Origin: Actinomycetota bacterium
Lineage (GTDB): Bacteria; Actinomycetota; Acidimicrobiia; Acidimicrobiales; Aldehydirespiratoraceae
Direction: 5' to 3'
Length of the DNA stretch: 64,000 bases
Assembly (NCBI GenBank): GCA_039188975.1
Contig: JBCCYT010000002.1
Span: 3,021-67,020, forward strand
Shown: piece after piece, positions 151 to 16,578 of the stretch
Position numbering within the stretch: the stretch's first letter is position 1
Layout: each line of letters starts with the position of its first letter
Position numbers and translations under genes: made by a program
Notes under the pieces: model-generated
What the model saw: only the letters and a program-made list of their open reading frames with translations
Told to the model about the DNA's origin: nothing
Databases searched by the model: none

Positions 151-1269
151 TTACAGCGGCGGCTCGACCTGCCATGCCTCGAGCGGTGCGTAGCGGGGCT
201 TGATGATGTGTTCGATGATCTGCAGCCGCTCACGGAACGGCAGGAAGCTCGACTTCATGGCGTTGACGGTGAGCCAGCGCAGCCGCGCCCAGTCGTACCC
301 GAACGCCTCGACCAGGGCCGTCATCTCCGACGTCATGCTCACGCCTGACATCAAGCGGTTGTCGGTGTTGACGGTGACCCGGAAGCGTAGATCGACGAGC
401 TGCTGGATGGGATGGTCTTCGATGCGTTCGACCACGCCGGTGTTCACATTGCTGGTCGGACAGACCTCGAGCGGGATTCGGGCATCTCGCAGGTAGTGGC
501 TCAACCGGCCGAGTTCGGTTTCGCCGTCGGGCGTCGTCGACCAGTCTTCGACGATCCGGATTCCGTGCCCGAGCCGCTCGGCGCCGCAGTACTGAACCGC
601 CTTCCAGATCGACCGCGGACCGTAGGCCTCTCCCGCATGAATCGTCACATGGAAGTTCTCGCGCTGACAGTACTGAAAGGCCAAGAGGTGCTCGTCGGGC
701 GGAAAGCCATCCTCGGGACCGGCGATGTCAAAGCCGACGACGCCGTGATCTCGATAGCGAACTGCGGCCTGGGCAACCTCGAGCCCTCGATCGAGATGCC
801 GCATCGCGGCGATCAGGACCCGGATCGTCAGTTCGGTGTCGGCCGATCCGGCCGCAAATCCGGTCAGCACCGCCTCGATCACTTGGTCGAGGGTGAGTCC
901 CCGCTCCGTGTGGAGTTCGGGGGCAAAACGAACCTCGGCGTACACCACGCCGTCAGCGGCGAGGTCTTCGGCACACTCGCGAGCGACGCGCTCGATCGCC
1001 GCGATCGTCTGCATCACCCCGACGGTGTGGCTGAAGGTTTCCAGATACAGCGTGAGGTCTTTGCGGTCGGCGCCTCGGCGGATCGTCTGCGTCAGGTCAT
1101 CGACGTCGGTGGTTGGAAGGCCGTCGTAGCCCGTCTCGGCAGCGAGCTCGATGATCGAGGCCGGACGAAGCCCACCGTCGAGGTGGTCGTGGAGCACCAC
1201 TTTTGGTGCCTGCCGGATTCGGTCGGGGGTGGGTGGTCCGACATCGGGGCTCAGGGTGGGGGTGTCCAT
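151..1269 (-). CDS. add: Adenosine deaminase
   Basis: Motifs LHDHLDGG, HAGE, RLGHG, CPTSN and NTDNRLMS. Start trimmed to MDTPT at 1269. Confidence 0.92.
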   Translation of the reverse strand: MDTPTLSPDVGPPTPDRIRQAPKVVLHDHLDGGLRPASIIELAAETGYDGLPTTDVDDLTQTIRRGADRKDLTLYLETFSHTVGVMQTIAAIERVARECAEDLAADGVVYAEVRFAPELHTERGLTLDQVIEAVLTGFAAGSADTELTIRVLIAAMRHLDRGLEVAQAAVRYRDHGVVGFDIAGPEDGFPPDEHLLAFQYCQRENFHVTIHAGEAYGPRSIWKAVQYCGAERLGHGIRIVEDWSTTPDGETELGRLSHYLRDARIPLEVCPTSNVNTGVVERIEDHPIQQLVDLRFRVTVNTDNRLMSGVSMTSEMTALVEAFGYDWARLRWLTVNAMKSSFLPFRERLQIIEHIIKPRYAPLEAWQVEPPL

Positions 1270-1349
1270 GAGCCAGATTATCGCCGCCGTTCCCAGTGCC
1301 GGATCACCGGCCCGGTAGGGTCGCCGAAATGGGGGACGAGACACGATCG

Positions 1350-2522
1350 ATGCCGCGCGTGCCGCTTGCGATCGTGCTCGTCTCGACGATGGTGGCGTCG
1401 ACCTACACCCTTTTTGCGCTGGCGGTTCTGGCGTCACCCATCATCGACGACCTCGGGGTGAGCCGCACCACCGTCGGCATCATTGGTTCGGTCAACACCG
1501 GCCTCGGTGCATTGACCGCCCCGTTGACGGGCCGAGTGACCGACCGAATCGGACCGCGCCGTGCAGTTCTTGGCCTGCTGGGTCTCTCGGCCGCGGCGAT
1601 GGTGTTGGTCGGGTTGGCCTCGAACGTGTGGATTCTTCTGCTCGCGTACGTGATCGGCGGTGTGCCCCAGGGGGGCGGAAACCCGGCGACAAATGCGCTG
1701 ATCGCGTCCACCCTCGCGCCCGGCGACCGAGGGGTGATGACCGGCATCAAGCAAAGCGGGGTGACCCTGGCTGTGTTCATCAGCGGCGTGACGATGCCAG
1801 CACTCGCCGAGGTCTGGAGCTGGCAGGGCGCCTATGTCGTCTTCGGTTGCCTGTTCCTCGGCCTGACGGGTCTGTGTTGGGCGCTGTTGCCGTCAGACGT
1901 GGGCGGGCCGTCGCCCGGAGTGGGCACCGCCGAAGGCAAGCGTGCGCCGTTGCCGCCGCTCATCATGCGCCTCGGGGTCTATGCGCTGCTGATGGGTCTG
2001 GCCAGCGGCGCAATCGGCCGCTTCCTTCCGCTCTTCGCCGAGGAGCAACTCGGGTACAGCCTCGCCGTCGCCGGGTTCGCGGCGTCGCTTTCTGGATTGC
2101 TGGGGATGGGTTTTCGCATCGCTGCGGCGCGGGTGGCGGAAACCCGGGTTGCGCCGACCACCTTGCTCGTCCAGCTGTCTTCGATCGGCGTCGTGTCGTC
2201 GGCGCTGCTGGCCCTGTCGGTGCCGTTCGGGCGTTGGCTGCTGTGGCCAGCGGTCGTGCTGTATGCGCTTGGACACACTGCGTGGAACGCCGTGGCGAAC
2301 CTGGCGGTCATCATGAATGTCTCGCAACGAGACGCGGGCCGGGCGTCGGGTGTGATCATCCTCGGGTTCTTGATGGGCCTCACCATTGCGGGTCCCGCGA
2401 CCGGTGTCATCGTCGATGCGACGGGCCGCTACGAGGTGGCGTGGTGGTTGTCGGTGGCACTGGCCGGGGTCTCGGCGGCCGTGCTGGCCCGTCGTCGCTC
2501 AGACGAAGCCACGCAGCGGTAG
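1350..2522 (+). CDS. MFS transporter
   Basis: About 12 hydrophobic segments; MFS motif A (GRVTDRIGPRR). Start uncertain. Confidence 0.85.
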   Translation: MPRVPLAIVLVSTMVASTYTLFALAVLASPIIDDLGVSRTTVGIIGSVNTGLGALTAPLTGRVTDRIGPRRAVLGLLGLSAAAMVLVGLASNVWILLLAYVIGGVPQGGGNPATNALIASTLAPGDRGVMTGIKQSGVTLAVFISGVTMPALAEVWSWQGAYVVFGCLFLGLTGLCWALLPSDVGGPSPGVGTAEGKRAPLPPLIMRLGVYALLMGLASGAIGRFLPLFAEEQLGYSLAVAGFAASLSGLLGMGFRIAAARVAETRVAPTTLLVQLSSIGVVSSALLALSVPFGRWLLWPAVVLYALGHTAWNAVANLAVIMNVSQRDAGRASGVIILGFLMGLTIAGPATGVIVDATGRYEVAWWLSVALAGVSAAVLARRRSDEATQR

Positions 2523-3344
2523 TGCGGGCGTCCGGCGGAGCCAGTTGTCATCGGCGTACGCGGCGGTCCCGTCGATGATGTGCAGCGTGTACGCATGGCG
2601 GCTGCGGCCTGAGGTGTTCGGCGCACTCCAATGGGGGAGTGTGCCGTGGAGCAAGACGAGCGTGCCAGCGTCAGCTTCGAGCGGGACGAGGTCGTCGGTG
2701 GCGTAGGGCGTGTCATCAAAGGTGTCCATGAACGCCTCGTCGCCCTCAGCGTTCATCCGGTAGCGGCTCTTGACCGGAATCCGGTGGCCCCCGGGATGGG
2801 CCCACAGGCAGCCGTTCTCCTGGGTCGCGTCTTCGATCGCGTACCAGAAGCCGATGACGGTCTGTGGCTCGGTCCACAGGAAGGTGTGGTCGCAATGCAG
2901 GCTGACCTCACCTCCGATGCCGGGCTGTTTGAAGATGTACATCGACTGCAGAAGCTGCGGGTCGGTGAAGCCGACGTCGGCCGCCACCTCGGCGAGTTCC
3001 GGCGTTCGGCTGAACGCATCGAAGGCCGGGTCGAGATCGTGCATCGCGTGGCCGAGCTTGTTGACGGCCAACGGCAGCGGCCGGGTCAGGGCGCCGTTCT
3101 CGACTGCGCCGTCTTCGAAGAACCAGCGGATCTTGTCGCCCGACGACAAGAACCAGTCGTCGTCACCGTGGGCCTGCTCGGAGGTGTCGAAGACGGTGAG
3201 GGCGCCGTCGTCGGTCGCATCGATGCCGTCGAGCAGCGTCTCGACATGGGCTTTGAGGTCGTCACAACGTTCGCGCGACACGAACTCGGGCAGGACGAGG
3301 AAGCCGTCTCGATCGAAATCGGCCAGCTGCTCAGCAGAGAGCAT
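2499..3344 (-). CDS. Fe(II)/2-oxoglutarate dioxygenase, PhyH family, PHYHD1-like
   Basis: HxD...H triad (HCD...LPH), FLSSGDKIRWFFE, NKLGHAMH, QSMYIFKQP, EDATQENGCLW. ATG overlaps the permease stop (ATGA). Confidence 0.9.
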   Translation of the reverse strand: MLSAEQLADFDRDGFLVLPEFVSRERCDDLKAHVETLLDGIDATDDGALTVFDTSEQAHGDDDWFLSSGDKIRWFFEDGAVENGALTRPLPLAVNKLGHAMHDLDPAFDAFSRTPELAEVAADVGFTDPQLLQSMYIFKQPGIGGEVSLHCDHTFLWTEPQTVIGFWYAIEDATQENGCLWAHPGGHRIPVKSRYRMNAEGDEAFMDTFDDTPYATDDLVPLEADAGTLVLLHGTLPHWSAPNTSGRSRHAYTLHIIDGTAAYADDNWLRRTPALPLRGFV

Positions 3345-4585
3345 CAGGTCTCTCCCTTTCGGTAGGGCTGGCCGAGCGCCACCGGCATGCGCAGGCGTTG
3401 AGCGAAGAAGATGAGCACGAGCAGCACGACCACGTACGGCAAGGTGTTGGACCACCAGCTCGGCACCGTGTCGGCGACGATCCACCAGAACAGCGCACCG
3501 GTGCCGAGCACGGCGGCGATGATCGTGTCGGCTTTGCGGCGCCGGGTGAATGCCCAAAAGCCAACGCCGGAAAACGCAATCGCGTTCACGAGCAACATGG
3601 CGTGCGACGCGGTCCCGTCGAGATCCCGCAGATCAAGTCCGAACACGTAGCCGAAGAGCAAGGCCCCGAGAAGCACTCCTCCCGGTCGCCAGTTCCCGAA
3701 GATCAGCGCGGCAAGCCCGATGAAGCCGCGTCCGGCCGAGTTGCCGCCCTGGAAGAGACCCGAGAGCTCGGTCGAGATGAACGCCCCACCGAGCCCAGCC
3801 AGACCGCCGGACATGATCACGGCGATGTACTTGTAGCGGATGATGTTGATGCCTTGGGCTTCGCCAGCTGACGGCTTCTCCCCACAGATCCGCAGGCGAA
3901 GACCAAAGCGGGTTCGCCAAATCAACCACAATGTGATCGGCACGAGGGCAATCGCAATGATCGCAACCCAGCTCGTGCCGCGCAGCAGACCTCGGGAGAG
4001 CTGGGCCACATCGGACAGGTACCAGATCTCCCATTGGGAGATCGTCAACAGCAGGTCCGGCGATTCCCAGCCGAAGACCGTTCCTCCTGCGAGGAACGGA
4101 ACATCCCAATCGCCGACTGCGCTCGTGCGCGGAGACGTCGTCGGCGATTCCCAGATCTCCTCAGACAGGTAGCGGGTGATCGCTGGCGCGAGGATGTTGA
4201 TCGCTACGCCCGAAATGATGTGATCGACCTGGAATGTGACGGTGGCGATCGCGTGGAGGAGTCCGCCGATCATGCCGCCACCCACACCGATCACCAGGCC
4301 CCACCAGGCGCCGTACTCGATCGAGCCCCAGGCGCCGAACCACATGCCGAGAATCAGCATGCCTTCGAGTCCGATATTGACGACCCCGGCCCGTTCGGAG
4401 AACAACCCGCCGAGCCCAGCGAGAAAGATCGGGACCGCGAATCGGAGCATCTCGCGAGCGGTGGCGATTTGGGTGAGGCGTTCGGTGTCGCTGATCGACT
4501 GCACGATCGTCAGCAACAAGACGCCGAGTGCTGCGTAGAGGGCCCAGCGGGCCCAGGCCGGCATGGTGCTGAGGCGAGTGATCAT
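3344..4585 (-). CDS. Nucleoside/sugar ABC transporter permease (NupC-like)
   Basis: SERAGVVNIGLEG and GRGFIGLAALIFGNW; multiple TM helices. Confidence 0.9.
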   Translation of the reverse strand: MITRLSTMPAWARWALYAALGVLLLTIVQSISDTERLTQIATAREMLRFAVPIFLAGLGGLFSERAGVVNIGLEGMLILGMWFGAWGSIEYGAWWGLVIGVGGGMIGGLLHAIATVTFQVDHIISGVAINILAPAITRYLSEEIWESPTTSPRTSAVGDWDVPFLAGGTVFGWESPDLLLTISQWEIWYLSDVAQLSRGLLRGTSWVAIIAIALVPITLWLIWRTRFGLRLRICGEKPSAGEAQGINIIRYKYIAVIMSGGLAGLGGAFISTELSGLFQGGNSAGRGFIGLAALIFGNWRPGGVLLGALLFGYVFGLDLRDLDGTASHAMLLVNAIAFSGVGFWAFTRRRKADTIIAAVLGTGALFWWIVADTVPSWWSNTLPYVVVLLVLIFFAQRLRMPVALGQPYRKGET

Positions 4586-5700
4586 GCCGGTACCGCCTCG
4601 CGGTGTGCCGCGAGCGCTTCGGCGGCCTCGCGTGCTTCATCTCGTTCGCGCACCCGATTGGCAACGCCGTAGGCGATCACTGCGGTGAGGAGCACGATGC
4701 CCTGCATGATCACGGCGATCTCGCGAGATGCGGCGCCGGTTGAATCGAGCACCCCCGACGACACATCCAGGAAGGCGAACAGCAATGCCGCGAACGCCAT
4801 GCCGCCGGGGTTGTTGCGACCGAGCAGCGCCACCGCGATGCCCTGAAAGCCGAGTCCTTGGATCGGGTCGGGCGGGAACTTGCCGCGGTCGGCGAGCTCG
4901 ACCATGCCGATGAGGCCGGCGACTGCACCGCTCAGCATCATGGCGGCCAGCACCATTCGTTTCGGGGGTACCCCACCGGCTCGAGCGGCGAACGGATTGA
5001 TCCCGCTCGCTCGGAGGTCGAAGCCGAAGCGGGTTCGGTTCAACAAGACGTAGTACAACACCCCGACCAAGATCGCGATGAGCAGCATGCCCGTCAGCTC
5101 TTTGCCTTGCCCGATGTCTCTGGTGACGATCTCGAGGAGGCCGTTGATGGTGGGAAGTAGCCCCGAGTCGTCGATTTGGTTCGTTCCGAGTTCAGTCGAC
5201 GAGAAGTTCTCGCCCAACTCTGCTTGCCACTCCTGCTGCAGCCAGGCGATCAGGCCACCCACTGCGATCGAGTTGAGCATGATCGTCGAAATCACCTCAT
5301 TGACACCCCGGGTGGTTTTCAAGATCCCGGCCACGCCTGCGTACAGCGCGCCGACGCCCATTGCGGTGACCATGATGACGAGAATGTGCAGCGCCTGAGG
5401 AAGGCTGATCAGTCCACCGATCTGTGCGGCGAACAGGAAGCCCATGAGGTACTGGCCTTCGACACCGATGTTGAAGAGGTTCATCCGGAACCCGATCGCG
5501 GCGGCCACGGCCGACAGGTAGAACGGCGTTGCCCGGTTGAGAATGTCGACCTGGGTTTCGAGTTTCGAGGCGTGGCTGATCATGTCGCCGTAGGCCTCGG
5601 CCGGGTTCGAGCCGAACGCCAGCAGGGCGAAGGTCGACACGACCAGCGTGAGCAGGAACGCGCCTACCGGAGCAGCAAGCGCAAAGGCGATTTTTCGCAT
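4582..5700 (-). CDS. Nucleoside/sugar ABC transporter permease (NupB-like)
   Basis: LFNIGVEGQY, GVNEVISTIMLN, GIAVALLGRNNP. Confidence 0.9.
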   Translation of the reverse strand: MRKIAFALAAPVGAFLLTLVVSTFALLAFGSNPAEAYGDMISHASKLETQVDILNRATPFYLSAVAAAIGFRMNLFNIGVEGQYLMGFLFAAQIGGLISLPQALHILVIMVTAMGVGALYAGVAGILKTTRGVNEVISTIMLNSIAVGGLIAWLQQEWQAELGENFSSTELGTNQIDDSGLLPTINGLLEIVTRDIGQGKELTGMLLIAILVGVLYYVLLNRTRFGFDLRASGINPFAARAGGVPPKRMVLAAMMLSGAVAGLIGMVELADRGKFPPDPIQGLGFQGIAVALLGRNNPGGMAFAALLFAFLDVSSGVLDSTGAASREIAVIMQGIVLLTAVIAYGVANRVRERDEAREAAEALAAHREAVPA

Positions 5701-7229
5701 TACGCGGTTCCCTCTCCCTGCAGGGCAGCCCCCGTCATGTAGGCGCCGAGATCGCGAGGGGTGACGTCCTCCGGTGAGACCGTGGCGACCAATTCGCCGC
5801 GCAGCATCACGACGATTGTGTCCGACAGCCCGATGAGTTCATCGAGATCGGCCGAAATCAGCAAGGTGGCGAGGCCGTCGCGCCGCGCCGTACGAATCTT
5901 GTTCCAGACGGCGGCTTGTGCGCCGACGTCGATGCCGCGCGTCGGGTGGGCCGCAACCAGAACCTCGGGGTGGGACGTCAGCTCTCGACAGATGATCAAC
6001 TTTTGCTGATTGCCGCCGGACAGGGCATGGGCCGACACCTCGATGTTCGGTGTGCGAACGTCGAACTTCTTGGCGATCTTCTCCGTCTGGGCACGCGCCG
6101 CCTCCGGATAGATCCACCATCGCGAGCCGAACGGGCGTTGGGTTTGGTGGCCGAGCGCGGCGTTCTCCCACAGCGGGGATGAGAGCAGCAAGCCCTCGTG
6201 ATGGCGGTCCTCTGGCACGTACGCCAGGCCCGCTTCGCGCCGGTGCCGCACCGACAGGTTGGTGATGTCGGAGCCCAGGAACTCGATCGAGCCTTCGGCA
6301 ACCTCGGCGGTACCGATGATCGCATCGACGAGTTCGCTCTGCCCATTGCCTTCGACACCGGCGATACCGACGATCTCTCCACGCCGAATGCGAAGGTCCA
6401 CGCCGCTCACGACGGGGCGTTCGTCGTCGTTGAGAACCGTCACCCGCTTCAGTTCGAGCGCGACCTCCTCGGTGACGGTCGAGACGGTCGTGTTGGGAGT
6501 CGGGAGTTCGCTGCCGACCATCAGCTCGGCCAGCTCTTGCGCGGTCACCCCGTCGTTTTTCATCGAGGCGACCGTCTTGCCTCGACGCAGCACGGTGATG
6601 CTGTCGGAGATCTCGAGCACCTCGTCGAGCTTGTGGTCGATGAAGAGGATCGTTGCGCCGCTTGCCTTGAGCTCGCGCATGCTCTCGAAGAGGGCCTCTA
6701 CCTCTTGGGGCACCAGGACGGCGGTGGGTTCGTCGAGAATCAGGATCTCAGCGCCGCGGTAGAGCACTTTGATGATCTCGACTCGCTGCCGTTCGCCGAC
6801 CTCGAGCGTCTCGACCATCTGGTTGATGTCGACGGTGAGACCGTAATCGTCGGCCACCCGGCGAAGATCCGACTCCGCCTGTGAGAAGTTGATGCGACCG
6901 CCCGGTTCGGTCGGCTCCGCGCCGAGAATGACGTTCTCGAGCACGGTGAGTTGATCAGCGAGCATGAAGTGCTGGTGGACCATGCCGATGCCGCGCTCGA
7001 TGGCGTCGGTCGGAGACGCGAATTCGACGAGTTCGCCGTTGACCTTCATCGTCCCCTCATCGGGCGGCTGCATGCCGTAGAGGATCTTCATGAGGGTCGA
7101 CTTGCCGGCCCCATTCTCCCCACAGATGGCGTGAATCTCGCCCTGCTCGACGGTGAGATTCACGTCGTCGTTGGCGACCACACCGGGGAATCGTTTGGTG
7201 ATTCCGGTCAGTTCGATTGCGGCGCTCAT
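5700..7229 (-). CDS. Nucleoside/sugar ABC transporter ATP-binding protein (two NBDs, NupA-like)
   Basis: Walker A GENGAGKST, LILDEPT, LSGGNQQK, PTRGIDVGA. Confidence 0.93.
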   Translation of the reverse strand: MSAAIELTGITKRFPGVVANDDVNLTVEQGEIHAICGENGAGKSTLMKILYGMQPPDEGTMKVNGELVEFASPTDAIERGIGMVHQHFMLADQLTVLENVILGAEPTEPGGRINFSQAESDLRRVADDYGLTVDINQMVETLEVGERQRVEIIKVLYRGAEILILDEPTAVLVPQEVEALFESMRELKASGATILFIDHKLDEVLEISDSITVLRRGKTVASMKNDGVTAQELAELMVGSELPTPNTTVSTVTEEVALELKRVTVLNDDERPVVSGVDLRIRRGEIVGIAGVEGNGQSELVDAIIGTAEVAEGSIEFLGSDITNLSVRHRREAGLAYVPEDRHHEGLLLSSPLWENAALGHQTQRPFGSRWWIYPEAARAQTEKIAKKFDVRTPNIEVSAHALSGGNQQKLIICRELTSHPEVLVAAHPTRGIDVGAQAAVWNKIRTARRDGLATLLISADLDELIGLSDTIVVMLRGELVATVSPEDVTPRDLGAYMTGAALQGEGTA

Positions 7230-7267
7230 GGCGTGCTTCCCCTCATGCCCGCTCGTGCCTCCCCAGC

Positions 7268-7343
7268 AGAAAACGAACGAGACCGGACCCTAACCGCTGA
7301 CCCCTGTCTGGAACAGACGAACGCAGCGGCGAGTCCGGCCTCG
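7268..7343 (-). terminator. Intercistronic stem-loop with U-rich tail after the BMP gene
   Basis: Minus strand CGAGGCCGGAC...CCGCTG...CAGCGG...GTCCGGTCTCG followed by TTCGTTTTCT. Confidence 0.55.
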
Positions 7344-7371
7344 CTCATGTCACGAATGTGCCTTCGTGGCC

Positions 7372-8520
7372 TCAGCCGTTGGTGACCTCGGTCGGATCGG
7401 TCGGCACGGTGATGTCGCCGGCGATGATCGCAGCCTTGGCCTCTTCGAGCTGGTCGACGATGTCGTCGACGTAGCCGCCGGTCGTCGAGTAGCCGACGCC
7501 GTCGACCGAAAGGTCATAGCGGGTTTCGCCGGCGGTGAAGCCGCCCTCTTCCTGCGTCTTCAGGATCTCGAAGACGGCCACGTCGACCCGCTTGAGCATC
7601 GAGGTGAGCACGTACTCCTGGAGGCTCTCGTCGACCGCACCGATGGTGTTGTACTGGTCGGAGTCGACGCCGATGCCCCACACCTTGGTGCCGGTGTCCT
7701 CGGAGTAGTCCTTGGCGGCCTGGAACATGCCGTTCCCGGCGCCACCGGCTGCGTGGTAGATCACGTCGGCGCCGTCTTCGTACATGGTGGTGGCGATGAC
7801 CTGGGCCCGGTCAGGCTGGTTGAAGCCGTCGAAGTCGGGGGCGTCGGTGATGTACTCGGCGACGACCTCGATCGAGGGATCGACCGATGCAACACCGGCG
7901 CGGAAGCCAGCCTCGAACTTCTCGATCAGACCAAAGCAGCACACGCCGCCGATGAAGCCGACCTTGCCGTTCTCGCTCTTGAGGGCGGCGGCCACGCCGA
8001 CCAGGTAGGACCCCTGCTCTTCGGCGAAGACCAGACCGGCGACGTTGTCACCGACCGGCGACGGCGGGTCGGTTTCGAAGTTGAGCATCGAGTCATCGAT
8101 CACCGCGAAGTTGGTGTCGGGGTTCTCGGCGGCGACCGCCGCGGCGTCTCCGGCGAAGAGGAAGCCGACGCCGATCACGATCGGGTTGGCGTCGGCGGCG
8201 AGCTGCAGCAGCTCGGCCCGGTTCGAACCATCGTCGTTGGGCGAGGCTTCCGAGAAGGCGATGCCCAGCTCGGAATCGGCCCGGTCGAGGCCCTCGGCCG
8301 CGGAGTCGTTGAACGACAGGTCGCCACGGCCACCGATGTCGTACACGAGGCCGACGGTGGTTTCTGCGGCCGGGACCTCTTCGGCCATCTCCGACGATGA
8401 CGCCGAATCAGACGCCGAGTCAGACGAGCTGGCTTCGGTGTCCTCGTCGTCGCCGCAGGCCGCAGCGATGAGTGAGAACGAAAGCAGCACCGACAGCAGC
8501 ATCAGCAAACGCTTGCGCAT
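7372..8520 (-). CDS. BMP family ABC substrate-binding lipoprotein (PnrA/NupN-like)
   Basis: Lipobox IAAAC; GGRGDLSFN, FAEEQGSYLVG, IGVDSDQ, SMLKRVD; SD GGAGGG upstream of ATG 8520. Confidence 0.92.
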   Translation of the reverse strand: MRKRLLMLLSVLLSFSLIAAACGDDEDTEASSSDSASDSASSSEMAEEVPAAETTVGLVYDIGGRGDLSFNDSAAEGLDRADSELGIAFSEASPNDDGSNRAELLQLAADANPIVIGVGFLFAGDAAAVAAENPDTNFAVIDDSMLNFETDPPSPVGDNVAGLVFAEEQGSYLVGVAAALKSENGKVGFIGGVCCFGLIEKFEAGFRAGVASVDPSIEVVAEYITDAPDFDGFNQPDRAQVIATTMYEDGADVIYHAAGGAGNGMFQAAKDYSEDTGTKVWGIGVDSDQYNTIGAVDESLQEYVLTSMLKRVDVAVFEILKTQEEGGFTAGETRYDLSVDGVGYSTTGGYVDDIVDQLEEAKAAIIAGDITVPTDPTEVTNG

Positions 8521-8662
8521 GGTGTTTCCCTCCAGAACCGCCCGTGGGGCGGCGGTTTCGTTGATGTCCGGGCGCGACAGCCGCCCCGGCGATTGCGAGC
8601 ACGGTAGCCCGCGCGTCGATGCCGCGCGCCCCTCGAAACGCACCTTTCACGCAGGCCGTGGG

Positions 8663-8671
8663 TTATCCACA
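8663..8671 (+). promoter_or_regulatory. Perfect DnaA box TTATCCACA
   Basis: Exact 9-mer consensus in the intergenic region upstream of the BMP gene; function unproven. Confidence 0.45.
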
Positions 8672-8710
8672 AGCACCCACATTGCTGATCGGCTCGGCTC
8701 AGTTGAAGAC

Positions 8711-9682
8711 TCAGTAGAAGACGCAGCGGCTCCGGTGGCGGGGGATGGCTTTGTATTCGGGGTCGGCCCCGGTGTTCCACAGAATGTTGTCGAGCGAACC
8801 AGTCGTGATCGTCGCACCAGCGCCGGTGCGTTGGGCCCGAACCGCAGTCGCGAGCAACTCGACGGCGTGCAGCCCACACGCCCGGATCTCGATCTCCTCA
8901 GGGCTCCCGATCTCGATGTTCTCCACCGCCTCGATCCGTTCGAGCAGCGCCGGCGAGAATTCCAGTACGCCATCGACTCGCAGCACGTGGGGCACGAGGT
9001 TGTCGGCGAACATCGTGAGCTGATCGAGATCGTCGAAGCGGCCGAGCCCGTCATGATCGAATGCCACCGCCAGGTCCTGCACCGTGATCTGGGCCCGCTT
9101 GTAGAACGCCACCGTTCCCGCAACCGGATGCTCGTGTTCGTCGCGGTAGAACGGCATCTCGGCGAGTGACGTCGCAAGCGCCGCTGCCGAGCCATCAGCC
9201 TGTTCGACGATCCCAACGAACGAGCCGTCGGCTCGCTCATCGACGAAGTCGGCCACGTCCGTGAGCGCGGTGGTGAAGAGCTCCATCAGCTCGTGCGCCG
9301 GGGAGCCGTCGAGCACTTGCCCGAACGTCGCCGACCAGTCAGCGACGGAGCGATCCCGCAGCCGATCCGTCGTAATCGTGCCGACCTCGGCCACCCAGTC
9401 ACGCAGGCTCGCTGCAACCGTGTGATAGCCGCTGTGCCCGGGCCGCTTTCTCAGATAGGGGAAGTAGCCGGAGCCGAAATTCACCGCATCGAGCGCAAGC
9501 ACGAATGCGGCGGTCGACTCGGCATCCCCGATCGGTTCTTGGCCGGGATCGTTGGGCGCCCGATCGAGATCGAGGCGTTCGGCAAGCGGCAGGATCGCCC
9601 CCGCGTTGATCCGCACGTGCGTCGAGACGTCGGCCACGGCGGCACACGAGGACCGGATGCGAGAGAAGAGCGTCGGGGTCAT
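8711..9682 (-). CDS. Queuosine salvage protein / queuosine-5'-phosphate N-glycosylase (Qng1, DUF2419 family)
   Basis: LDAVNFG, FYKRAQI, LTMFADNLVPHVL, GSPEEIEIRA, LDNILW and C-terminal HRSRCVFY are typical of DUF2419. Confidence 0.88.
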   Translation of the reverse strand: MTPTLFSRIRSSCAAVADVSTHVRINAGAILPLAERLDLDRAPNDPGQEPIGDAESTAAFVLALDAVNFGSGYFPYLRKRPGHSGYHTVAASLRDWVAEVGTITTDRLRDRSVADWSATFGQVLDGSPAHELMELFTTALTDVADFVDERADGSFVGIVEQADGSAAALATSLAEMPFYRDEHEHPVAGTVAFYKRAQITVQDLAVAFDHDGLGRFDDLDQLTMFADNLVPHVLRVDGVLEFSPALLERIEAVENIEIGSPEEIEIRACGLHAVELLATAVRAQRTGAGATITTGSLDNILWNTGADPEYKAIPRHRSRCVFY

Positions 9683-10005
9683 GAGCGGGTGAACGACGAT
9701 GCTCGTTCGACTCGAGCAATCCTGAGTTCGTACCAGTCGTACCAGTCGACGCGGCCCGACGACTGCGCGTCGAGGTGCTCAGGATCGGTGCGCCACGCCT
9801 CGACGGCCGCTTCGTCGCGCCAGTACGACACGGTGATGCCGGTACCGCTGTCATCGCGAACCGATTCGATGCCGAGAAAGCCATCGATGCGATGCGCAAG
9901 CTCAACCATGCGAGCCGCCGTGCGGTCGTAGTCAGGATGGTCACCCGGCACCTGCCGATTGGTGAAGATCACGGCCAGGTACGGCGGCTGCGGAGTGGAC
10001 GCCAT
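9679..10005 (-). CDS. Antibiotic biosynthesis monooxygenase (ABM) family protein
   Basis: PPYLAVIF, GFLGIES, GITVSYW...W...EH...Q..GR..WY; stop overlaps the qng1 start. Confidence 0.85.
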   Translation of the reverse strand: MASTPQPPYLAVIFTNRQVPGDHPDYDRTAARMVELAHRIDGFLGIESVRDDSGTGITVSYWRDEAAVEAWRTDPEHLDAQSSGRVDWYDWYELRIARVERASSFTRS

Positions 10006-10015
10006 GGGCCAGAAC

Positions 10016-11473
10016 TTAGAGGCGGCGGGCGCGCTTCCAGGCGGAATATGCGGCGAGGTGATGCAGCGAACGAACCGCCCGACCGGCTGACGCGTGGCAC
10101 AGCCGCCCCAACGACTTCAGCGTCGCCGGAGCCGGGTTTGACGGGTCGGCGTTCGCGAGTTCGGTCGCGACCATGATCGGTGTACCGGTGGCGGCGCTGA
10201 TCTCGGCCGCGGCTTCCGCATAACGAGTGTCCTGACGCTCATGGAAGCCGACGATTCGTTCCAGACCATGCTCGGGGTAGAACGAACCACGTCGCATCAT
10301 CGCCGCCGTATTCGACTGGATTCCGACGCCCAGCAGCACCGCAGCATCGACCTCCGGGTGCTCAGCGACGAGCTGCAAGATCTCCGGCACCGTGTCCCGC
10401 GTCTCGCCCCCGGCCATGTCGACCGGATTGTTCTTGCTCCATCGGGGCGGGAGCTTCTCGTCGATCGCCGCCATCAGATCATCGGGGAGTGCGGTTGGAA
10501 CGAGTCGGGTGTCGGCCATGGCGTCGACGGCGGCGACGCCCCACCCGCCAACCGTTGTGACGACGACGACTCGATCGCCCGTCGGCAGCGGTTGCGTGGC
10601 GAGCGTCGCGGCCGCCTCGAACGCCTCCTCCACATCCTTCGCTCGGATCAGGCCGGCCTGGCGACACATGCCGTCGAAGACCGCATCGTCGCTGGCCAGG
10701 GCGCCGGTGTGAGAAGCCGCGGCGCGAGCACCCGCCGCCGAGGCGCCGCCCTTCACGACGACGATCGGCTTCCTCGCCGCAAGGGGCTTCATGCGTTCGA
10801 ACATTTCGCGGCCGTCATCGACCGATTCGATGTACACGAGCGAGACGGCCGTTTCCGGATCGTTGGTGAAATAGTCGAGATAGTCGGCGATACCCAGCAC
10901 GGAAGCGTTCCCTGCAGCAACCGCTCTCGAAACGCCCACGCCGGTGTGGTTGGCGAGGTTGAGAAACGACGAGACGAAGTTCCCTGACTGGCTCGCGATG
11001 GCGATCTTTCCTGCGGGCGCATACGGGGCGACGATTTGGGCACACATCTTCGATGGCGTCGACACAACACCCTGCCCGTTCGGTCCGGCGAGGGCGATGC
11101 CGAGCTCGTCGCACAGCGCAACGAGCCGCTGTTCCATCTCGATGCCTTCAGGGCCAGCCTCGCGGTAGCCGCCCGCCGCGCAGAACGCAGCGGTGACACC
11201 CTTGGCCGCGGCCTGGCGCAACAGTCCTTCGTTGATCGCCGGTGGTGTGCAGATGAAGAGCATGTCGGCCGCGCCGTCGGGGATATCGTCGATCGAGCCG
11301 AGCACCTGCTGGCCGAGCACCTCGCCCGGCTCGCGGCTGACGGGAAACACGGCGCCCTCGTAGCCGCTGGTGAGAAGGTTGTGCAGCGTCACGAACCCGA
11401 ACTTTCCCGGGTGGTTCGACACGCCGGTGATGATGATGCCCTTCGGGTCGAACAGGGTGGAGAGATCGGTCAC
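10016..11473 (-). CDS. Acyl/acetate-CoA ligase (ADP-forming), alpha/CoA-binding subunit
   Basis: LFDPKGI, GPNGQG, SQSG, phospho-His motif ASHTGALA, NPVD. Confidence 0.88.
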   Translation of the reverse strand: MTDLSTLFDPKGIIITGVSNHPGKFGFVTLHNLLTSGYEGAVFPVSREPGEVLGQQVLGSIDDIPDGAADMLFICTPPAINEGLLRQAAAKGVTAAFCAAGGYREAGPEGIEMEQRLVALCDELGIALAGPNGQGVVSTPSKMCAQIVAPYAPAGKIAIASQSGNFVSSFLNLANHTGVGVSRAVAAGNASVLGIADYLDYFTNDPETAVSLVYIESVDDGREMFERMKPLAARKPIVVVKGGASAAGARAAASHTGALASDDAVFDGMCRQAGLIRAKDVEEAFEAAATLATQPLPTGDRVVVVTTVGGWGVAAVDAMADTRLVPTALPDDLMAAIDEKLPPRWSKNNPVDMAGGETRDTVPEILQLVAEHPEVDAAVLLGVGIQSNTAAMMRRGSFYPEHGLERIVGFHERQDTRYAEAAAEISAATGTPIMVATELANADPSNPAPATLKSLGRLCHASAGRAVRSLHHLAAYSAWKRARRL

Positions 11474-12135
11474 GACGCCACCTCTTCGAGCTCGATGAGC
11501 GCATCGACGGCGACCGGTTTTCCCTCCACCAGGATCAACGGATTGAGATCCGCCGATCGCACGCCCGTCTCTTCCGCCCCCACCCGGGCAAGCGCAACAA
11601 GCGCGTCGATGATCGCAGCGCGGTCGGCCGCCGGCTCGCCGCGGAACTCCTCGAACAGACGCTGTGTCTCGAGATCGTCGAGCATCTCGGCGGCGTCGAC
11701 CTCGGTGATCGGAGCCAGACGGAAGCTGACGTCGCGGATCGCTTCGGCGAGGATCCCGCCCACGCCCACCATCACCGTCATGCCGAACTGAGGATCGTCG
11801 TTGAGCCCCGCAATCAGTTCCCGATTGCCGTCGACCATCGTGGAAACGAGGACCTCGACATCGCCGTCCTCAGGCACCGCTTTGCCGAGAAGTTCGTCGC
11901 AGGCAGCGGCGAGCGCGTCGGGGTCGGAGATTCGGAGCCGAACCAGACCCCGTTCGGTCTTGTGGGCGATCGCTCGCCCGCACAGCTTCGCAACGACCGG
12001 GAAGGTGACCGTCGGGTCCGAGTCGACCGCCGCCAGCACCTCGGCGGTACTCGTGCCGGTGACGAAGGGGGAGACGGGAACGCCGTAGCCGGCGACCACC
12101 CGTCGCGATTCGGCTTCAGAGAGAGTGATGCTCAC
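11470..12135 (-). CDS. Acyl/acetate-CoA ligase (ADP-forming), beta/ATP-grasp subunit
   Basis: FPVVAK, AHKTERGLV, DPQFG, GVGGI, DLNPL; GTG start overlaps the galK stop. Confidence 0.85.
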   Translation of the reverse strand: MSITLSEAESRRVVAGYGVPVSPFVTGTSTAEVLAAVDSDPTVTFPVVAKLCGRAIAHKTERGLVRLRISDPDALAAACDELLGKAVPEDGDVEVLVSTMVDGNRELIAGLNDDPQFGMTVMVGVGGILAEAIRDVSFRLAPITEVDAAEMLDDLETQRLFEEFRGEPAADRAAIIDALVALARVGAEETGVRSADLNPLILVEGKPVAVDALIELEEVAS

Positions 12136-13280
12136 GCCGTGGGTTGTACCACGCGTGCCCCATCGACCGGCCAAACGACGTGAAAGGCCGGTTCGTCGGT
12201 CGACGGCTGTTCCGGCGGGGCGACGAACCGTTCGGCCATCTCGGCCACGAAGTCACCGACCTGGTCGACCGTGACGAGCGCGATGGCTGCGCCCGCAAAT
12301 CCGGCTCCGGTCATCCGTGCGCCGAGACAGCCATCGATGGTGCGAGCGAGCCGCACCGCTGCGTCGGGAGCCGGCCCGGCGACCGCGTAGTCGTCGGTGA
12401 GCGACTCATGGCTGGCATCCATCAGCGACCCCAACCGTTCGATGTCACCCTCTGCGGCGGCGTGGGCCGCAGCCCGGGTGCGTTCGTTCTCGGAGATCAC
12501 ATGGTGCGCACGTCGCCGGTCCACCGGATCGATGTCGACGCGACCGAGATCGTCGAGGCTCGCGTCGCGCAACGCCGCCACATTGAGCGCCGCCGCCACC
12601 CGCTCACACGCGGAGCGGCGCTTGGCGTATTCGGAGTCCACCAGCCCACGACGAGTGCCGGTGTCGAGGACGACGACGCGAACCGACTCCGGGAGGGGGA
12701 TCGGTTGCAGCTCCAGGCTGCGGCAGTCGATAAGCGACGCGGCCCCGGCCTCGCCGGCTGCCGAGATGAGTTGATCCATGATCCCGACGGGGACGCCGAT
12801 GACCTCGTGCTCGACTCGCTGCCCGATCCGGGCAAGGGTTGCGGCGTCGAGCGCATCGCCGACGAGGCTCACCAGCGCGGTTCCGATCGCCATTTCGAGC
12901 GCAGCTGACGACGACAGCGACGAGCCGGGGATGTCGCTGACCACCACACAGTCGAACCCGCCGACGTCGACGCCGTGGTCCGTGAGCGCCCACGCCATGC
13001 CGTGGAGATACCGCCCCCACCCCCCGGTCGCGGTCGGCGGGTCGCCGATCGAGAACTCGGTGGTGCCGAATCGTTCGCTGTGGCCGCACACCCGTCGGTC
13101 GGCACGTGGCGAGACGGCGACCGAGGTGCCGAACGGAATCGCCATCGGCAAGACGAAGCCGTCGTTGTAGTCGGTGTGGTCGCCGATGAGGTTGACGCGC
13201 CCCGGCGCAAGCGCAACGACCGAGGCAGAGCGCCCAAACGTCTGCAGGTGCAGCTCGGCGGCTACGTCAACGTTGACCAT
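12132..13280 (-). CDS. galK: Galactokinase
   Basis: APGRVNLIGDHTDYNDG, SLSSSAA, GIMDQ, GARMTGAGF. Confidence 0.92.
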   Translation of the reverse strand: MVNVDVAAELHLQTFGRSASVVALAPGRVNLIGDHTDYNDGFVLPMAIPFGTSVAVSPRADRRVCGHSERFGTTEFSIGDPPTATGGWGRYLHGMAWALTDHGVDVGGFDCVVVSDIPGSSLSSSAALEMAIGTALVSLVGDALDAATLARIGQRVEHEVIGVPVGIMDQLISAAGEAGAASLIDCRSLELQPIPLPESVRVVVLDTGTRRGLVDSEYAKRRSACERVAAALNVAALRDASLDDLGRVDIDPVDRRRAHHVISENERTRAAAHAAAEGDIERLGSLMDASHESLTDDYAVAGPAPDAAVRLARTIDGCLGARMTGAGFAGAAIALVTVDQVGDFVAEMAERFVAPPEQPSTDEPAFHVVWPVDGARVVQPTA

Positions 13281-13378
13281 TTTCTGAGCTTAATACTTGA
13301 CCGCACCCGTCACCGCCTGGAAACCTTCCCGAAATGTCAGACGGCGGGGGTCGTCTGACGCAACCCAGTGGAGGATTC

Positions 13379-14704
13379 ATGTCGAACTACCCCAGCCCGT
13401 CCGCGTGGGCACAGCACGTGTCGCGTCGTGGCGTTCTCAAGGGGGGTGCGGCCGCCGGTGGTTTGGTGGCCATGCCCACGATTCTGGCCGCCTGCGGCGA
13501 CGACGAGGGCAGCAGCTCCTTCTCGGGCTCGATCGGTGATGCCAGTGGCACGCTGTCGATCGGCTCGAACGCGTCGGATGACGCCCCGAAGGCGGGCCTC
13601 GCCGCCGTCGTGGCGGCGTTCCCGAACGAGAACGTCGAGACCACGATCAACACCCTTGATCACAACACCTACCAGGAGAACATCACGTCGATCCTGCAGG
13701 CCAAGGAGGACGACGTCCTCGCCTGGTTCGCCGGTTTCCGCAACAAGTTCTTCGCCGATCAGGGCCTCGTCGGCGACATCTCCGACGTGTGGGATTCCAT
13801 CTCCGGTCTCGGTGAGGGCTTCCGTGCAGCGTCGACCGCGTCTGACGGCAAGCAGTACTTCGTGCCGACCAGCTACTACACCTGGGCGGTCAACTACAAC
13901 AAGAACGTGTTCGACGAGAACGGCTACGCCATCCCGACCACCAAGGACGAGATGTTGGGCCTCGCCGAGCAGATGATGTCTGACGGCATCACGCCGTTCG
14001 CGTACGCCAACGACGGCAAGTGGCCGCTCATGGGCACCTTCGACGCCATCAACATGCGGGTCAACGGCTACGACTTCCACATCGACCTCATGGGTGGCAA
14101 CGAGTCGTGGACCGACGACCGTGTCCGCGCCGTGTTCACCGAGTGGGCTGAGCTTCTTCCCTTCGCCCAGGAAGGCGCCAACGGCCGTACCTGGCAAGAA
14201 GCGGCTGTCGACATGGAAGAGGGCCGCGCTGGCATGTACCTGCTCGGCACCTTCGCCGCATCCGCACTGGCCGACGCCTCGGTGATGGACTTCTTCAACT
14301 TCCCCGAGTACGACTCGGCCATCGGTGCCTCGGCCCTCGATGCCCCGATCGACGGCTACCAGATGGTGCAGGGCCCGGCCAACGAGGCCGCCGCCAAGGA
14401 AATGCTGCTCCACATGTCGACCGCAACCGCCCAGGACGCCTACCTGTCCGAGGATCCCTCGGTCGTGGCTTCCAACAGCGGCGCCAACACCAGCGTGTAC
14501 AACGACCTGCAGAAGAAGTCGGCTGAGCTCGCCAACGCCGCCACCGGCATCTCGCAGTTCCTCGACCGTGACACTATCCCGGACTTCGCGTCGGCGTGTG
14601 GTGACATGTTCGCCGAGTTTGTCGAAGACCCGTCTGGTGTCGACGCCGCACTCGCGGATCTGGAAGAGAAGAAGGTCGCCATCTTCGCCGACTTCAACTC
14701 CTGA
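13379..14704 (+). CDS. Carbohydrate ABC transporter substrate-binding protein (Tat lipoprotein)
   Basis: Twin-arginine SRRGVLK plus lipobox LAAC; DGKQYFVP; SD GGAGG at 13370. Confidence 0.9.
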   Translation: MSNYPSPSAWAQHVSRRGVLKGGAAAGGLVAMPTILAACGDDEGSSSFSGSIGDASGTLSIGSNASDDAPKAGLAAVVAAFPNENVETTINTLDHNTYQENITSILQAKEDDVLAWFAGFRNKFFADQGLVGDISDVWDSISGLGEGFRAASTASDGKQYFVPTSYYTWAVNYNKNVFDENGYAIPTTKDEMLGLAEQMMSDGITPFAYANDGKWPLMGTFDAINMRVNGYDFHIDLMGGNESWTDDRVRAVFTEWAELLPFAQEGANGRTWQEAAVDMEEGRAGMYLLGTFAASALADASVMDFFNFPEYDSAIGASALDAPIDGYQMVQGPANEAAAKEMLLHMSTATAQDAYLSEDPSVVASNSGANTSVYNDLQKKSAELANAATGISQFLDRDTIPDFASACGDMFAEFVEDPSGVDAALADLEEKKVAIFADFNS

Positions 14705-14713
14705 TTTCCGATC

Positions 14714-15715
14714 ATGGCTTCAGATCTCACCGAGACTCCTGAAGCTGCCGACGACTCAACGCCGTCGGCGCTCCGCAAGGAGCGTCGGCGGCGTTCGTCG
14801 TCTCGCAGCAGCGATCAACGCACCGTCGCCCTCATGGCGGGGATCCCATCGGTGCTGCACATCGGGCTGGTGTGGTTGCCCGCGATCGCCACCTTCTTTT
14901 TGTCGTTCACGAACTGGAACGGGTTCCGGTTCGACACGATCGACTGGGTCGGCCTCCGAAACTACCGCCAGCTCTTCACGGTGTTCGAAAAGGACCTCTA
15001 CGAGGCCTTGCTGAACAACCTGTGGGTGTTGGGCTTCTTGTTCGTCATCGCGACGCCGCTCGGCATGTTCTTGGCGTACCTACTCGACAAGAATCTCAAA
15101 GGCACCCCGATCTACCAGAGCGTCTTCTACTTCCCGGTCGTGCTCTCGCTCGCCGTCGTCGGCTTCATTTGGAAGTCGGTGATCTACTCACCTCGCCAGG
15201 GCCTGTTCAACACCGTGCTCGGCCGAACCGAGGAAGGCAACCAGATCGACTGGTTGGGCGACCCCGACTTCGTCATCTCGGTCACGAGCGACTACGGGCT
15301 CTCCAAGAACTTCCTCGCCCTGATCTTGCCGATGATCTGGCGTCACGCCGGGTACATCATGGTGCTCTATCTCGCAGGCCTCAAGAGTGTCGACCCGGCG
15401 CTGCGCGAGGCCGCCGCGATCGACGGCTGCACCGAATGGCAGTCGTTTCGACGGGTGATCTTCCCGTCGCTCAAGCCGGTGAACGTCGTGATCATCGTCA
15501 TCACCGTCATCGAGGCGCTGCGAATCTTCGACATCATCGACGTGCTCAACAACCCGATCGGCACCGACGTGTTGTCGATCCTTGTCACCGAGTCGATCCT
15601 GGGTGAGTCGAGCAACATCGGCCGCGGTTCTGCCTACGGCGTCATCTTGTTGCTGCTCTGCCTGATCTTCGTGGTCTGGTATCTGCGCAACACCTTCCGG
15701 GAGGAAGAAGTATGA
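14714..15715 (+). CDS. Carbohydrate ABC transporter permease
   Basis: WVGLRNY; EAA loop LREAAAIDG. Confidence 0.92.
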   Translation: MASDLTETPEAADDSTPSALRKERRRRSSSRSSDQRTVALMAGIPSVLHIGLVWLPAIATFFLSFTNWNGFRFDTIDWVGLRNYRQLFTVFEKDLYEALLNNLWVLGFLFVIATPLGMFLAYLLDKNLKGTPIYQSVFYFPVVLSLAVVGFIWKSVIYSPRQGLFNTVLGRTEEGNQIDWLGDPDFVISVTSDYGLSKNFLALILPMIWRHAGYIMVLYLAGLKSVDPALREAAAIDGCTEWQSFRRVIFPSLKPVNVVIIVITVIEALRIFDIIDVLNNPIGTDVLSILVTESILGESSNIGRGSAYGVILLLLCLIFVVWYLRNTFREEEV

Positions 15716-16578
15716 TCCAGAGCCGCCGTAATCAGATCCTGGCCCAGATCTTCTTGATCGCCCTTGCAGTGCTGTGGCTGCTGCCCATGCTCGGCATGGT
15801 GACGGCCTCGTTCCGCCCCTTCAGCGAGACCGCCTCCCAAGGTTTCTTCTCCTGGCCCGACACGCTCACGCTGGAGAACTTCGAGAATGCGTGGGAGCGG
15901 GGCAACATGACCCGCCACTGGGTCATCACGTTCATCGTGGTGATTCCTGCGGTGATCCTCGTGTTGTTCTTGTCATCGATGGTTGCCTACGTGGTGAGCC
16001 GCTACAGCTGGAAATACAACATCGCCCTGCTGATGCTGTTCACCGCCGGCAACCTGTTGCCGCCTCAGGCGATCGTTCAGCCACTGTTCCAGCTGTACAA
16101 CCGGATCCCGTTTCCCGAGATCCCGCTGCTTGCCGACACCGGCGAGCTGCGCGGGTCGCTGATCGGACTGATCCTCATTCATGTGGCGTTCCAGAGTGGA
16201 TTCTGCACATTCGTGCTCAGCAACTACATGAAGACGCTGCCCAAAGAGCTGAACGAGGCCGCCGCAGTCGACGGGGCCAGCGTCTGGCGCCAGTACTGGC
16301 AGATCGTGTTGCCGCTCACCCGTCCTGCGCTCGGCGCGCTCGGCACGCTGCAGTTCGCGTGGATCTACAACGACTACTTCTGGGCGGTCGTCTTGATCCA
16401 GAAGGGTGACAACCTCCCGATCACGTCGTCGCTGCGCAACCTGTCCGGTGAGTTCTTCACCGACGACAACCTTGTCGCCGCGGGTTCGCTGATCGTCGTG
16501 TTGCCAACGATCATCATCTACTTGGTCTTGCGCAAGCAGTTCATCGCCGGTCTGTCGGTCGGGGCCAGCAAGGGCTGA
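15712..16578 (+). CDS. Carbohydrate ABC transporter permease
   Basis: EAA loop ELNEAAAVDGA; C-terminal QFIAGL...KG. Confidence 0.92.
   Translation: MIQSRRNQILAQIFLIALAVLWLLPMLGMVTASFRPFSETASQGFFSWPDTLTLENFENAWERGNMTRHWVITFIVVIPAVILVLFLSSMVAYVVSRYSWKYNIALLMLFTAGNLLPPQAIVQPLFQLYNRIPFPEIPLLADTGELRGSLIGLILIHVAFQSGFCTFVLSNYMKTLPKELNEAAAVDGASVWRQYWQIVLPLTRPALGALGTLQFAWIYNDYFWAVVLIQKGDNLPITSSLRNLSGEFFTDDNLVAAGSLIVVLPTIIIYLVLRKQFIAGLSVGASKG

Follow-up and report, generated by a model that had tools for sequence, protein, structure and literature searches.

Nucleoside importers of the PnrA/TmpC/BmpA/BmpD type, in which a BMP-family binding lipoprotein is encoded with an ATPase and two permeases, are known from clusters with cdd, deoA, add and deoC. 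PHYHD1 and related enzymes demethylate free 2′-O-methyl nucleosides (Nm), not nucleotides or RNA (Stonkus et al., 2025, PMC12709175); this activity was first described in December 2025, and the main text of that paper does not treat gene context. A third family, Qng1 (DUF2419, PF10343), includes StQng1, a hydrolase of queuosine 5′-monophosphate (Q-5′MP) that cleaves free queuosine (Q) at ∼60% of the Q-5′MP rate (Hung et al., 2023, PMC9881137; PDB 7U91, 7UK3). Homologues of all three are encoded together at positions 151–10,005 of a 64,000-nucleotide stretch (the window) of contig JBCCYT010000002.1, from a member of the Aldehydirespiratoraceae (Actinomycetota; assembly GCA_039188975.1). The genes named there by an initial annotation are all intact and in the order given, as judged by open reading frames and by Pfam and NCBIfam profile matches.

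The locus is read here, with a rough probability of 0.55, as a predicted importer operon that ends in an Nm-demethylating enzyme of PHYHD1 type and is preceded by a probably separately transcribed, remodelled Qng1-like protein, a likely hydrolase of a modified guanosine-type nucleoside, not of queuosine 5′-phosphate. The BMP protein would bind nucleosides and the ABC complex import them. The dioxygenase would then demethylate imported 2′-O-methyl nucleosides, and adenosine deaminase (Add) with two nucleoside hydrolases encoded elsewhere would process the product. The Qng1-like protein would cleave a free modified guanosine-type nucleoside, fed partly by the importer. As judged from the genes, the importer and PHYHD1 half of this reading appears well supported and the queuosine half weaker. 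The core features are as follows.

2499..3344, minus strand: PHYHD1-type Fe(II)/2-oxoglutarate dioxygenase (P0001; PhyH gene), predicted 2′-O-methylnucleoside demethylase (PF05721; phmmer to human PHYHD1)
3344..4585, minus strand: ABC permease 2 (BPD_transp_2)
4582..5700, minus strand: ABC permease 1 (BPD_transp_2)
5700..7229, minus strand: two-domain ABC ATPase (profile matches)
7372..8520, minus strand: predicted BMP/PnrA-type nucleoside-binding lipoprotein with lipobox Cys22 (PF02608)
8711..9682, minus strand: Qng1/DUF2419-family protein (P0003) of the NFGSG/DNL subfamily (PF10343, E 2e-54)

P0001 matches human PHYHD1 over residues 2–277 (phmmer, E 3e-61, 210 bits), PHYH at 1e-6 and PF05721 with E 2e-40. 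The iron triad H-x-D…H is complete (H150, D152 and H238, equal to H156, D158 and H246 of human PHYHD1). The docking-derived substrate contacts of PHYHD1 are K102, H105, Q139, W277, F161 and S154 (PMC12709175), and their counterparts in P0001 are the identical residues K96, H99, Q133, W268, F155 and S148. No substitution is seen among 94 homologue rows at K96, Q133, H150, D152, H238, R249 or W268; H99 is conserved in 93 of them, and S148 is variable. Compared with the PHYHD1/FJS demethylases (PF05721; PMC12709175; PDB 2OPW, 3OBZ), P0001 thus has the same iron triad, 2-oxoglutarate arginine and complete set of named ribose and base residues. It differs from the bacterial PHYHD1/FJS enzymes assayed in that study in having the eukaryote-type set, with Phe instead of their Tyr, and from PHYHD1 itself in a cavity helix four residues shorter and in the coupling of its gene to an importer. 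P0001 likely strips 2′-O-methyl groups from imported nucleosides.

The gene neighbourhood was surveyed in 60 relatives, 36 of the same family and 24 of other families. PhyH is present in 41 (32 family genomes and 9 others). In each of the 32 family genomes it adjoins the importer, as seen from coordinates or, at contig breaks, from adjacent permeases. The aligned ends of permease and PhyH lie ≤50 nt apart in 17 of 19 family loci; the PhyH match is partial in one of them. Since PhyH adjoins the importer in 32/32 family genomes and qng1 lies before BMP in 23/23, the linkage is more than chance. In other families PhyH is within ∼8 kb of the importer in six of nine genomes; of the three remaining copies one is beside cdd, one is unlinked and one is at a contig edge. 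A sample of 300 genomes of the phylum has PhyH in five, all of one order, and in the four that were new the gene is part of importer/add/upp/pmm clusters (4/4). Importer-linked PhyH occurs in six families besides the host's. Gene orders vary (perm-PhyH-cdd, perm-pdp-PhyH-add-deoC, perm-PhyH-add-psuG, cdd-PhyH), and cdd, pdp, pmm, deoC, upp, IUNH and psuG are also found in PhyH–importer loci of relatives in differing arrangements. The best independent case is locus L248, of proteobacterial type, which reads ATPase-perm-perm-cdd-pnp-deoA-deoB-PHYHD1 with an overlapping PHYHD1 start; its deoA is closest to proteins of Azospirillum and Burkholderia plasmids, and its PHYHD1 falls outside the main cluster in a weakly supported tree. 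The PhyH of G024 (L071:12671-13147) matches only in part, either by frameshift or by assembly error.

The importer set lies in one run, consisting of the BMP lipoprotein, the two-domain ATPase and two BPD_transp_2 permeases. The closest solved relatives of the BMP protein are Lbp, the pneumococcal lipoprotein and TmpC (E 1e-40 to 1e-47). By motif, via alignments, its pocket has a two-Phe sandwich (F70, F233) and the ribose residues D142, D286 and K310. These are motifs described in PMC13325309 and PMC7093131, and we infer that the residues correspond to the BmpA numbering of PMC13325309. The BMP-ABC system presumably takes up nucleosides, a function assigned at family level, and under the preferred reading it would also accept a 2′-O-methyl ribose. 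The layout, the pocket motifs and the nearby add are those of the known PnrA-type salvage clusters; the importer–add cluster is of a known kind, and relatives carry a full salvage set around a PnrA-type importer as those clusters do. The host-family locus differs in that cdd, pdp and deoC are gone, none of them having been found in the host genome either, PHYHD1 follows the permease directly and the cassette has been exchanged in place in some congeners. At BMP residues 194–195 two Cys are adjacent (GGVCCFGLIEKF), a pair that is conserved in many family BMPs and in G058/G059, and is without counterpart in the aligned solved structures.

Downstream steps were looked for in the host genome (G000; 96.5% complete, 328 contigs). 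Neither a tblastn search with proteins of relatives nor TIGR01354 revealed cdd, deoA, deoB, pnp, deoC or tdk, and there is one partial PF01048 match. Two nucleoside hydrolases, upp, a pfkB kinase and psuG are present. Since cdd, deoA, deoB and deoC were not found, Add and the nucleoside hydrolases are the candidate processors. Ordinary nucleoside hydrolases need free ribose hydroxyls. Because of this, and because only a few hydrolases cleaving Nm are listed in PMC12709175, demethylation likely precedes hydrolysis. The host also encodes a protein 78% identical to mycothiol-dependent formaldehyde dehydrogenase. In G059 (L058:5143-8095), a single case, an S-(hydroxymethyl)mycothiol dehydrogenase is encoded two genes from PHYHD1 and is a possible sink for released formaldehyde.

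The transcriptional layout bears on whether qng1 belongs with the importer. The remaining features of the locus are given here.

151..1269, minus strand: add, adenosine deaminase, an ordinary nucleoside-salvage cluster member (PF00962; NF006847 equivalog at 544 bits, where the cut-off is 412)
1329..2522, plus strand: MFS transporter gene, inverted, start at 1329 or 1350, overlapping PhyH by 24 nt (PF07690)
8601..8606, minus strand: −10-like hexamer TACCGT, likely promoter of the importer, ∼80 nt ahead of the BMP start (TAnnnT conservation)
8663..8671, plus strand: 9-mer TTATCCACA in the qng1–BMP spacer (motif match)
9679..10005, minus strand: ABM-domain protein, accompanying the qng1-like gene only in this lineage (PF03992)
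10016..13280, minus strand: acdA-acdB (acyl-CoA ligase halves) and galK, an upstream run with no nucleoside genes (profile matches)

The genes form three blocks. In the first, galK-acdB-acdA-ABM-qng1, ABM lies 10 bp behind acdA and overlaps qng1 (ATGA), and for this reason ABM-qng1 is the tail of the upstream galK-acdB-acdA run. The second block follows qng1 after a 190-bp spacer and consists of BMP, a 142-bp gap and then ATPase-permease-permease-PhyH with stop-start overlaps, the PhyH start overlapping the permease stop as TGATG. In the third block the inverted MFS gene overlaps the 3′ end of PhyH, and add is divergent from it. The likely start codons are at 1269 (add), 3344 (PhyH) and 8520 (BMP). 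Of 24 upstream regions, 23 have a hexamer TAnnnT 30–110 nt ahead of the BMP start, whether or not qng1 is there, as compared with 6.2 regions on average and no more than 12 among 2000 shuffles; the pattern was picked after the spacers had been viewed and the genomes are kin, so the count is not to be read as a p-value. An importer-specific promoter is thus likely between qng1 and BMP. A sigma-70 promoter scan gave 0 sites, a terminator scan gave no more than in shuffles, and Rfam at gathering threshold showed no riboswitch in 19 loci that included qng1–BMP spacers, the tgt locus and L103. The −10-like site between qng1 and BMP, together with the divergence of add from MFS, argues for at least three transcription units from add to ABM, and that divergence suggests that add, a member of the usual salvage cluster, likely has its own promoter. 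In 11 of the 17 family loci having PhyH, add is found downstream of PhyH at a distance of a few kb at most, and the MFS gene is present in 10 of the 17. Only 8 of the 20 family loci retrieved contain the full set of five named parts. The 9-mer TTATCCACA, which we take to be a perfect DnaA-box consensus, lies upstream of the importer −10-like site. It is found in 5 of the 24 upstream regions, all of the same genus, and is shared by G003, G004, G006 and G013; with only eight copies in the genome, it is at about chance level.

The importer cassette has its own history in part of the family. In G003 (L094), G004 (L077) and G014 (L063) the cassette is 42–56% identical, the flanking qng1 and PhyH 68–84%, and the BMP-ABC cassette groups with other families. 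An approximately unbiased (AU) test rejects a single clade for eight congeneric ATPases (p 5e-5; the group was named after the first tree). In G003/G004 the DNA is ∼77% identical through the spacer as far as position 8436, which lies in the part of BMP that encodes the signal region, and identity returns from the start of PhyH. The whole BMP-ABC cassette of G003/G004 is an in-place swap in which promoter region, signal peptide and PhyH were kept. The swapped BMPs of G003, G004 and G014 have altered pocket motifs (DGTFND, IDG and Trp for the second Phe).

The Qng1-like protein is modelled with high confidence (predicted local distance difference test 97) as a helix-hairpin-helix glycosylase fold, with a template modelling score of 0.88 and 32% identity to StQng1 (7UK3). 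Residues D65, N68, K195, D203 and D227 of P0003 stand for D69, N72, K199, D207 and D231 of Qng1; D298, W302, H316 and the C-terminal Y323, a Tyr that is catalytic in StQng1, are likewise kept, and Y93 is Y86 in P0003. The guanine-reading pair D298/W302 and the catalytic set are those defined for StQng1 by Hung et al. (2023; PMC9881137). In contrast, the phosphate residues R80, Y232, K233 and Q306 are replaced by Y76, N228, L229 and A306, R80 lying in a gapped loop and being the least sure of the mapped residues. The ribose-stacking F75 is S71, the side-chain residues W94 and W299 of the cyclopentenediol pocket are H87 and N299, and no Trp or His stands in P0003 residues 23–60 for W48/H53 of StQng1. 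This remodelled pocket is a subfamily trait: of the best 150 representatives at 50% identity, 129 were aligned (21 fell out for length), and of these 126 have S71 and 125 have N228, both fixed marks of the subfamily, while 96 have L229 and 53 still have Q306. The NFGSG/DNL motifs are matched by ∼2300 stretches in GTDB genomes of, by record title, many phyla. Since the glycosylase core and guanine-reading Asp/Trp are kept and the phosphate pocket is not, P0003 likely acts on a free nucleoside. Our guess at its substrate would be the riboside of a 7-substituted guanine or deazaguanine whose side chain is small, of preQ1 type in the first place and m7G in the second.

Within the family, qng1 is present in 23 of the 36 genomes and is directly before BMP in all 23. 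The qng1 of G028 (L074:12868-13917) is in two pieces, through a frameshift or an assembly error. The family data bear on a rival reading, in which the importer–PHYHD1 unit is real, ABM-qng1 is an unrelated insertion after acdB-acdA kept by synteny, and the Qng1-like enzyme is a housekeeping protein inside the cell, acting for instance on products of tRNA turnover and independent of import. We consider this rather unlikely. It would agree with the −10-like site being there with or without qng1, with the lack of qng1 in 13 of the 36 family genomes, six of them single-contig (G017, G021, G027, G029, G030 and G035), and with the diverse neighbours in 80 cross-phylum qng1-like loci, of which 75 are without nucleoside neighbours; a BMP gene is found in only two and any nucleoside gene in five (three of them Acidimicrobiia). 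In four qng1-negative loci acdA directly precedes BMP. However, G018 and G028 have lost acdA and ABM, and qng1 stays before BMP in both. A qng1-like gene is also found within a BMP-Qng1-like-ATPase-permease-permease operon in a Desulfobacteraceae genome (L103:4950-11192), the strongest instance of a possible functional link between the NFGSG/DNL subfamily and nucleoside import. In G052 it is at the edge of a pmm-upp-deoC-add-pdp-cdd-ABC cluster, it lies beside pmm/pnp in L134, L142 and L157 and beside pmm/upp/deoC/pnp in other Acidimicrobiia, and G218 has a Qng1 gene of another type that faces a BMP operon head-to-head. A PF10343 search of 400 genomes of the phylum did not show a BMP operon ending in a Qng1 gene. 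ABM accompanies qng1 in 10 of 13 family loci and is seen in none of 8 qng1-negative loci and none of the 80 cross-phylum ones. ABM and MFS look like passengers, with no link beyond this family.

These results divide the proposal of the initial annotation, a unit that brings in RNA-turnover products and removes or salvages their modifications. The importer and PHYHD1 part stands, on the residues, the activity described in PMC12709175 and a linkage that persists through rearrangement in the family and in other families. The qng1 part does not: its linkage to the importer is conserved in the family and is rare across phyla, where 2 of 80 loci have BMP. Release of queuine from Q nucleotides is not supported, given the changed phosphate pocket and the change of most of the side-chain pocket. 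A single co-regulated unit with qng1 is at odds with the −10-like site before BMP, with the 13 of 36 family genomes that lack qng1 and keep tgt, and with the rarity of importers beside it in other phyla. ABM, also counted as part of the system, drops out for want of any link beyond the host family.

Queuosine-precursor transporters clustered with qng1 have been described (Quaiyum et al., 2024, PMC11130926), and the same logic applies to a BMP importer beside a qng1-like gene. An Acidobacteriota UPS transporter next to qng1 carried preQ0/preQ1 and, unexpectedly, not Q; the main text of that paper names no BMP-type ABC importers, and 'ABC_tran PF00005' is listed there as untested. The host G000 has tgt, queA and queG. 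As the initial annotation had predicted, tgt is present with no QueF found and only a short weak match to QueC; QPTR and TIGR01212 gave no match, and QueD, QueE, QueH and QueT were not searched. The host TGT has the motif GGLSVG (preQ1 type), not the GG[LS][AS]G of queuine-using TGT, and the GGLSVG type is predicted to exclude queuine (PMC11570991). This gene set, without matches to QueC (beyond the weak one), QueF, QPTR or a queuine lyase, together with the TGT motif, points to a host that depends on an external supply of preQ1 and for which no use of queuine is known.

The same evidence makes it very doubtful that the importer takes up queuosine, with the Qng1 homologue freeing queuine and TGT inserting it directly or after a lyase. 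The fold of P0003 is that of Qng1, StQng1 does cleave free Q, so that loss of the phosphate pocket could favour Q (PMC9881137), and tgt, queA and queG without queC/queF and QPTR would suit salvage. In Bartonella, Q-salvage enzymes whose TGT has the Val motif are reported to show dual specificity (PMC11570991). However, equivalents of W48, H53, W94 and W299 are missing from the side-chain pocket, the TGT is of GGLSVG type, no TIGR01212-family protein was found in G000, and tgt is present in 36/36 family genomes regardless of qng1. The qng1-negative G019 and G021 have the same queA, queC, queF, QPTR and queG profile as G000; given this and the ubiquity of tgt, qng1 is not required for the tgt/queA/queG profile.

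Among 40 of the 80 cross-phylum qng1-like genomes, chosen for longer contigs and without a matched control, so that no enrichment is claimed, tgt is present in 39, queA in 37, queC in 15 and TIGR01212 in 9; without the unpublished G392 and G364 (L155, L107) the numbers are 38, 35, 15 and 9 of 38. GGL[SA]VG is found in 20 of 30 cross-phylum TGT loci examined. Genome G293 carries none of the conclusions. In hosts of NFGSG/DNL proteins, TGT and QueA often occur in the absence of QueC, which raises the question of their preQ1 source. A bolder reading, which we regard as decidedly unlikely, is that the NFGSG/DNL subfamily would be a so far unrecognised preQ1-riboside hydrolase and, with the BMP importer, would feed preQ1 to TGT-QueA-QueG where preQ1 synthesis and a known precursor transporter are absent. 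If so, the locus would be a two-enzyme gateway in which PHYHD1 de-blocks the sugar and the Qng1-like protein recovers the rare base of scavenged RNA nucleosides. Neither TGT motif nor queA separates the two Qng1 types, as G218 and G178, of the other type, also have GGLSVG and queA.

Near qng1-like genes, an MFS family recurs in five Chloroflexota loci (L135, L146, L148, L155, L159) and is directly upstream on the same strand in L135, L155 and L159, the L155 genome being unpublished; it is a candidate precursor transporter. A radical SAM gene of TIGR01212 (MnmL/YtqA in NCBIfam) lies near the qng1-like gene in four Riflebacteria-type loci (L096:7443-8387, L097, L098, L115). Some Riflebacteria-type loci also have genes that, from motifs, we take to be cmoA/cmoB-like. 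QueL may belong to TIGR01212 too, a lead that is given little weight.

A number of observations weigh against the preferred reading. The function of the locus is predicted from its genes. The region of the cavity helix (Q56–L71 of PHYHD1) aligns with a 4-residue deletion in P0001, and the BMP pocket has canonical ribose-binding Asp/Lys and no mark of specialisation for modified nucleosides. Three family genomes (G017, G027, G036) have the importer without PhyH. For qng1-like genes, beside the 75 of 80 cross-phylum loci without a nucleoside gene and with scattered immediate neighbours, seven Thermoleophilia-type copies have no nucleoside neighbour, and a UvrD neighbour was confirmed in the three tested. 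Of 80 metagenomic PHYHD1 loci, 22 have a nucleoside gene and 8 have importer parts (11 and 7, respectively, among the 30 loci of ≥8 kb), and a PHYHD1 clade of 36 rows is without any nucleoside-gene neighbour. Most nucleoside-linked metagenomic PHYHD1 proteins group with those of Acidimicrobiales. The PHYHD1 link is therefore not universal, and, as most positive loci are kin, much of the linkage to the importer may be one inherited event.

Six further metagenomic loci carry xdh/ygeY. In one low-GC clade (L196:6974-14554, L179, L181, L182, L184, L191) PHYHD1 is convergent on ygeY-like, ygeW, arcC and selenium-dependent xdh genes. A plasmid search gave one PHYHD1 match, on an Azospirillum plasmid, among methyltransferases and a TauD gene and with no nucleoside context. 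Such purine-catabolism and methyltransferase surroundings, the shorter cavity helix and the prediction of P0001 function from sequence would all fit a dioxygenase that acts on another nucleoside or purine derivative, by other methylation or hydroxylation chemistry, and not on 2′-O-methyl groups. This appears improbable: all docking-named ribose and base residues are kept, and every full-length PHYHD1 protein assayed in PMC12709175 was active, whereas PHYH was inactive.

The importer–add cluster and PHYHD1 activity are already known, and the locus is no new kind of system. What the locus contributes is the flanking of one importer by both enzymes, the residue-level definition of the Qng1 subfamily and the evidence for probably separate transcripts. 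A literature search found no paper that joins PHYHD1 to an importer or describes the NFGSG/DNL subfamily; Table S2 of PMC11130926 may bear on this. Coupling of PHYHD1 to an importer provides a naturally occurring pathway in bacteria, through which their use of 2′-O-methylated RNA breakdown products as food can be clearly tested. Many proteins annotated as 'queuosine salvage protein' lack the substrate-defining residues of Qng1, so that queuosine pathways reconstructed from annotation may be wrong where these proteins are involved.

Two adenosine-deaminase paralogues are found near PHYHD1 in G268, G150 and G348 (L080-L082), and in G058 (L057) the less similar type (45–49%) is directly behind PhyH. 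This type could act on modified adenosine. In the window at 13334-16578, divergent from galK, there is a second ABC importer with a TAT-signal binding protein and two BPD_transp_1 permeases, likely a galactoside uptake unit unrelated to the nucleoside locus.

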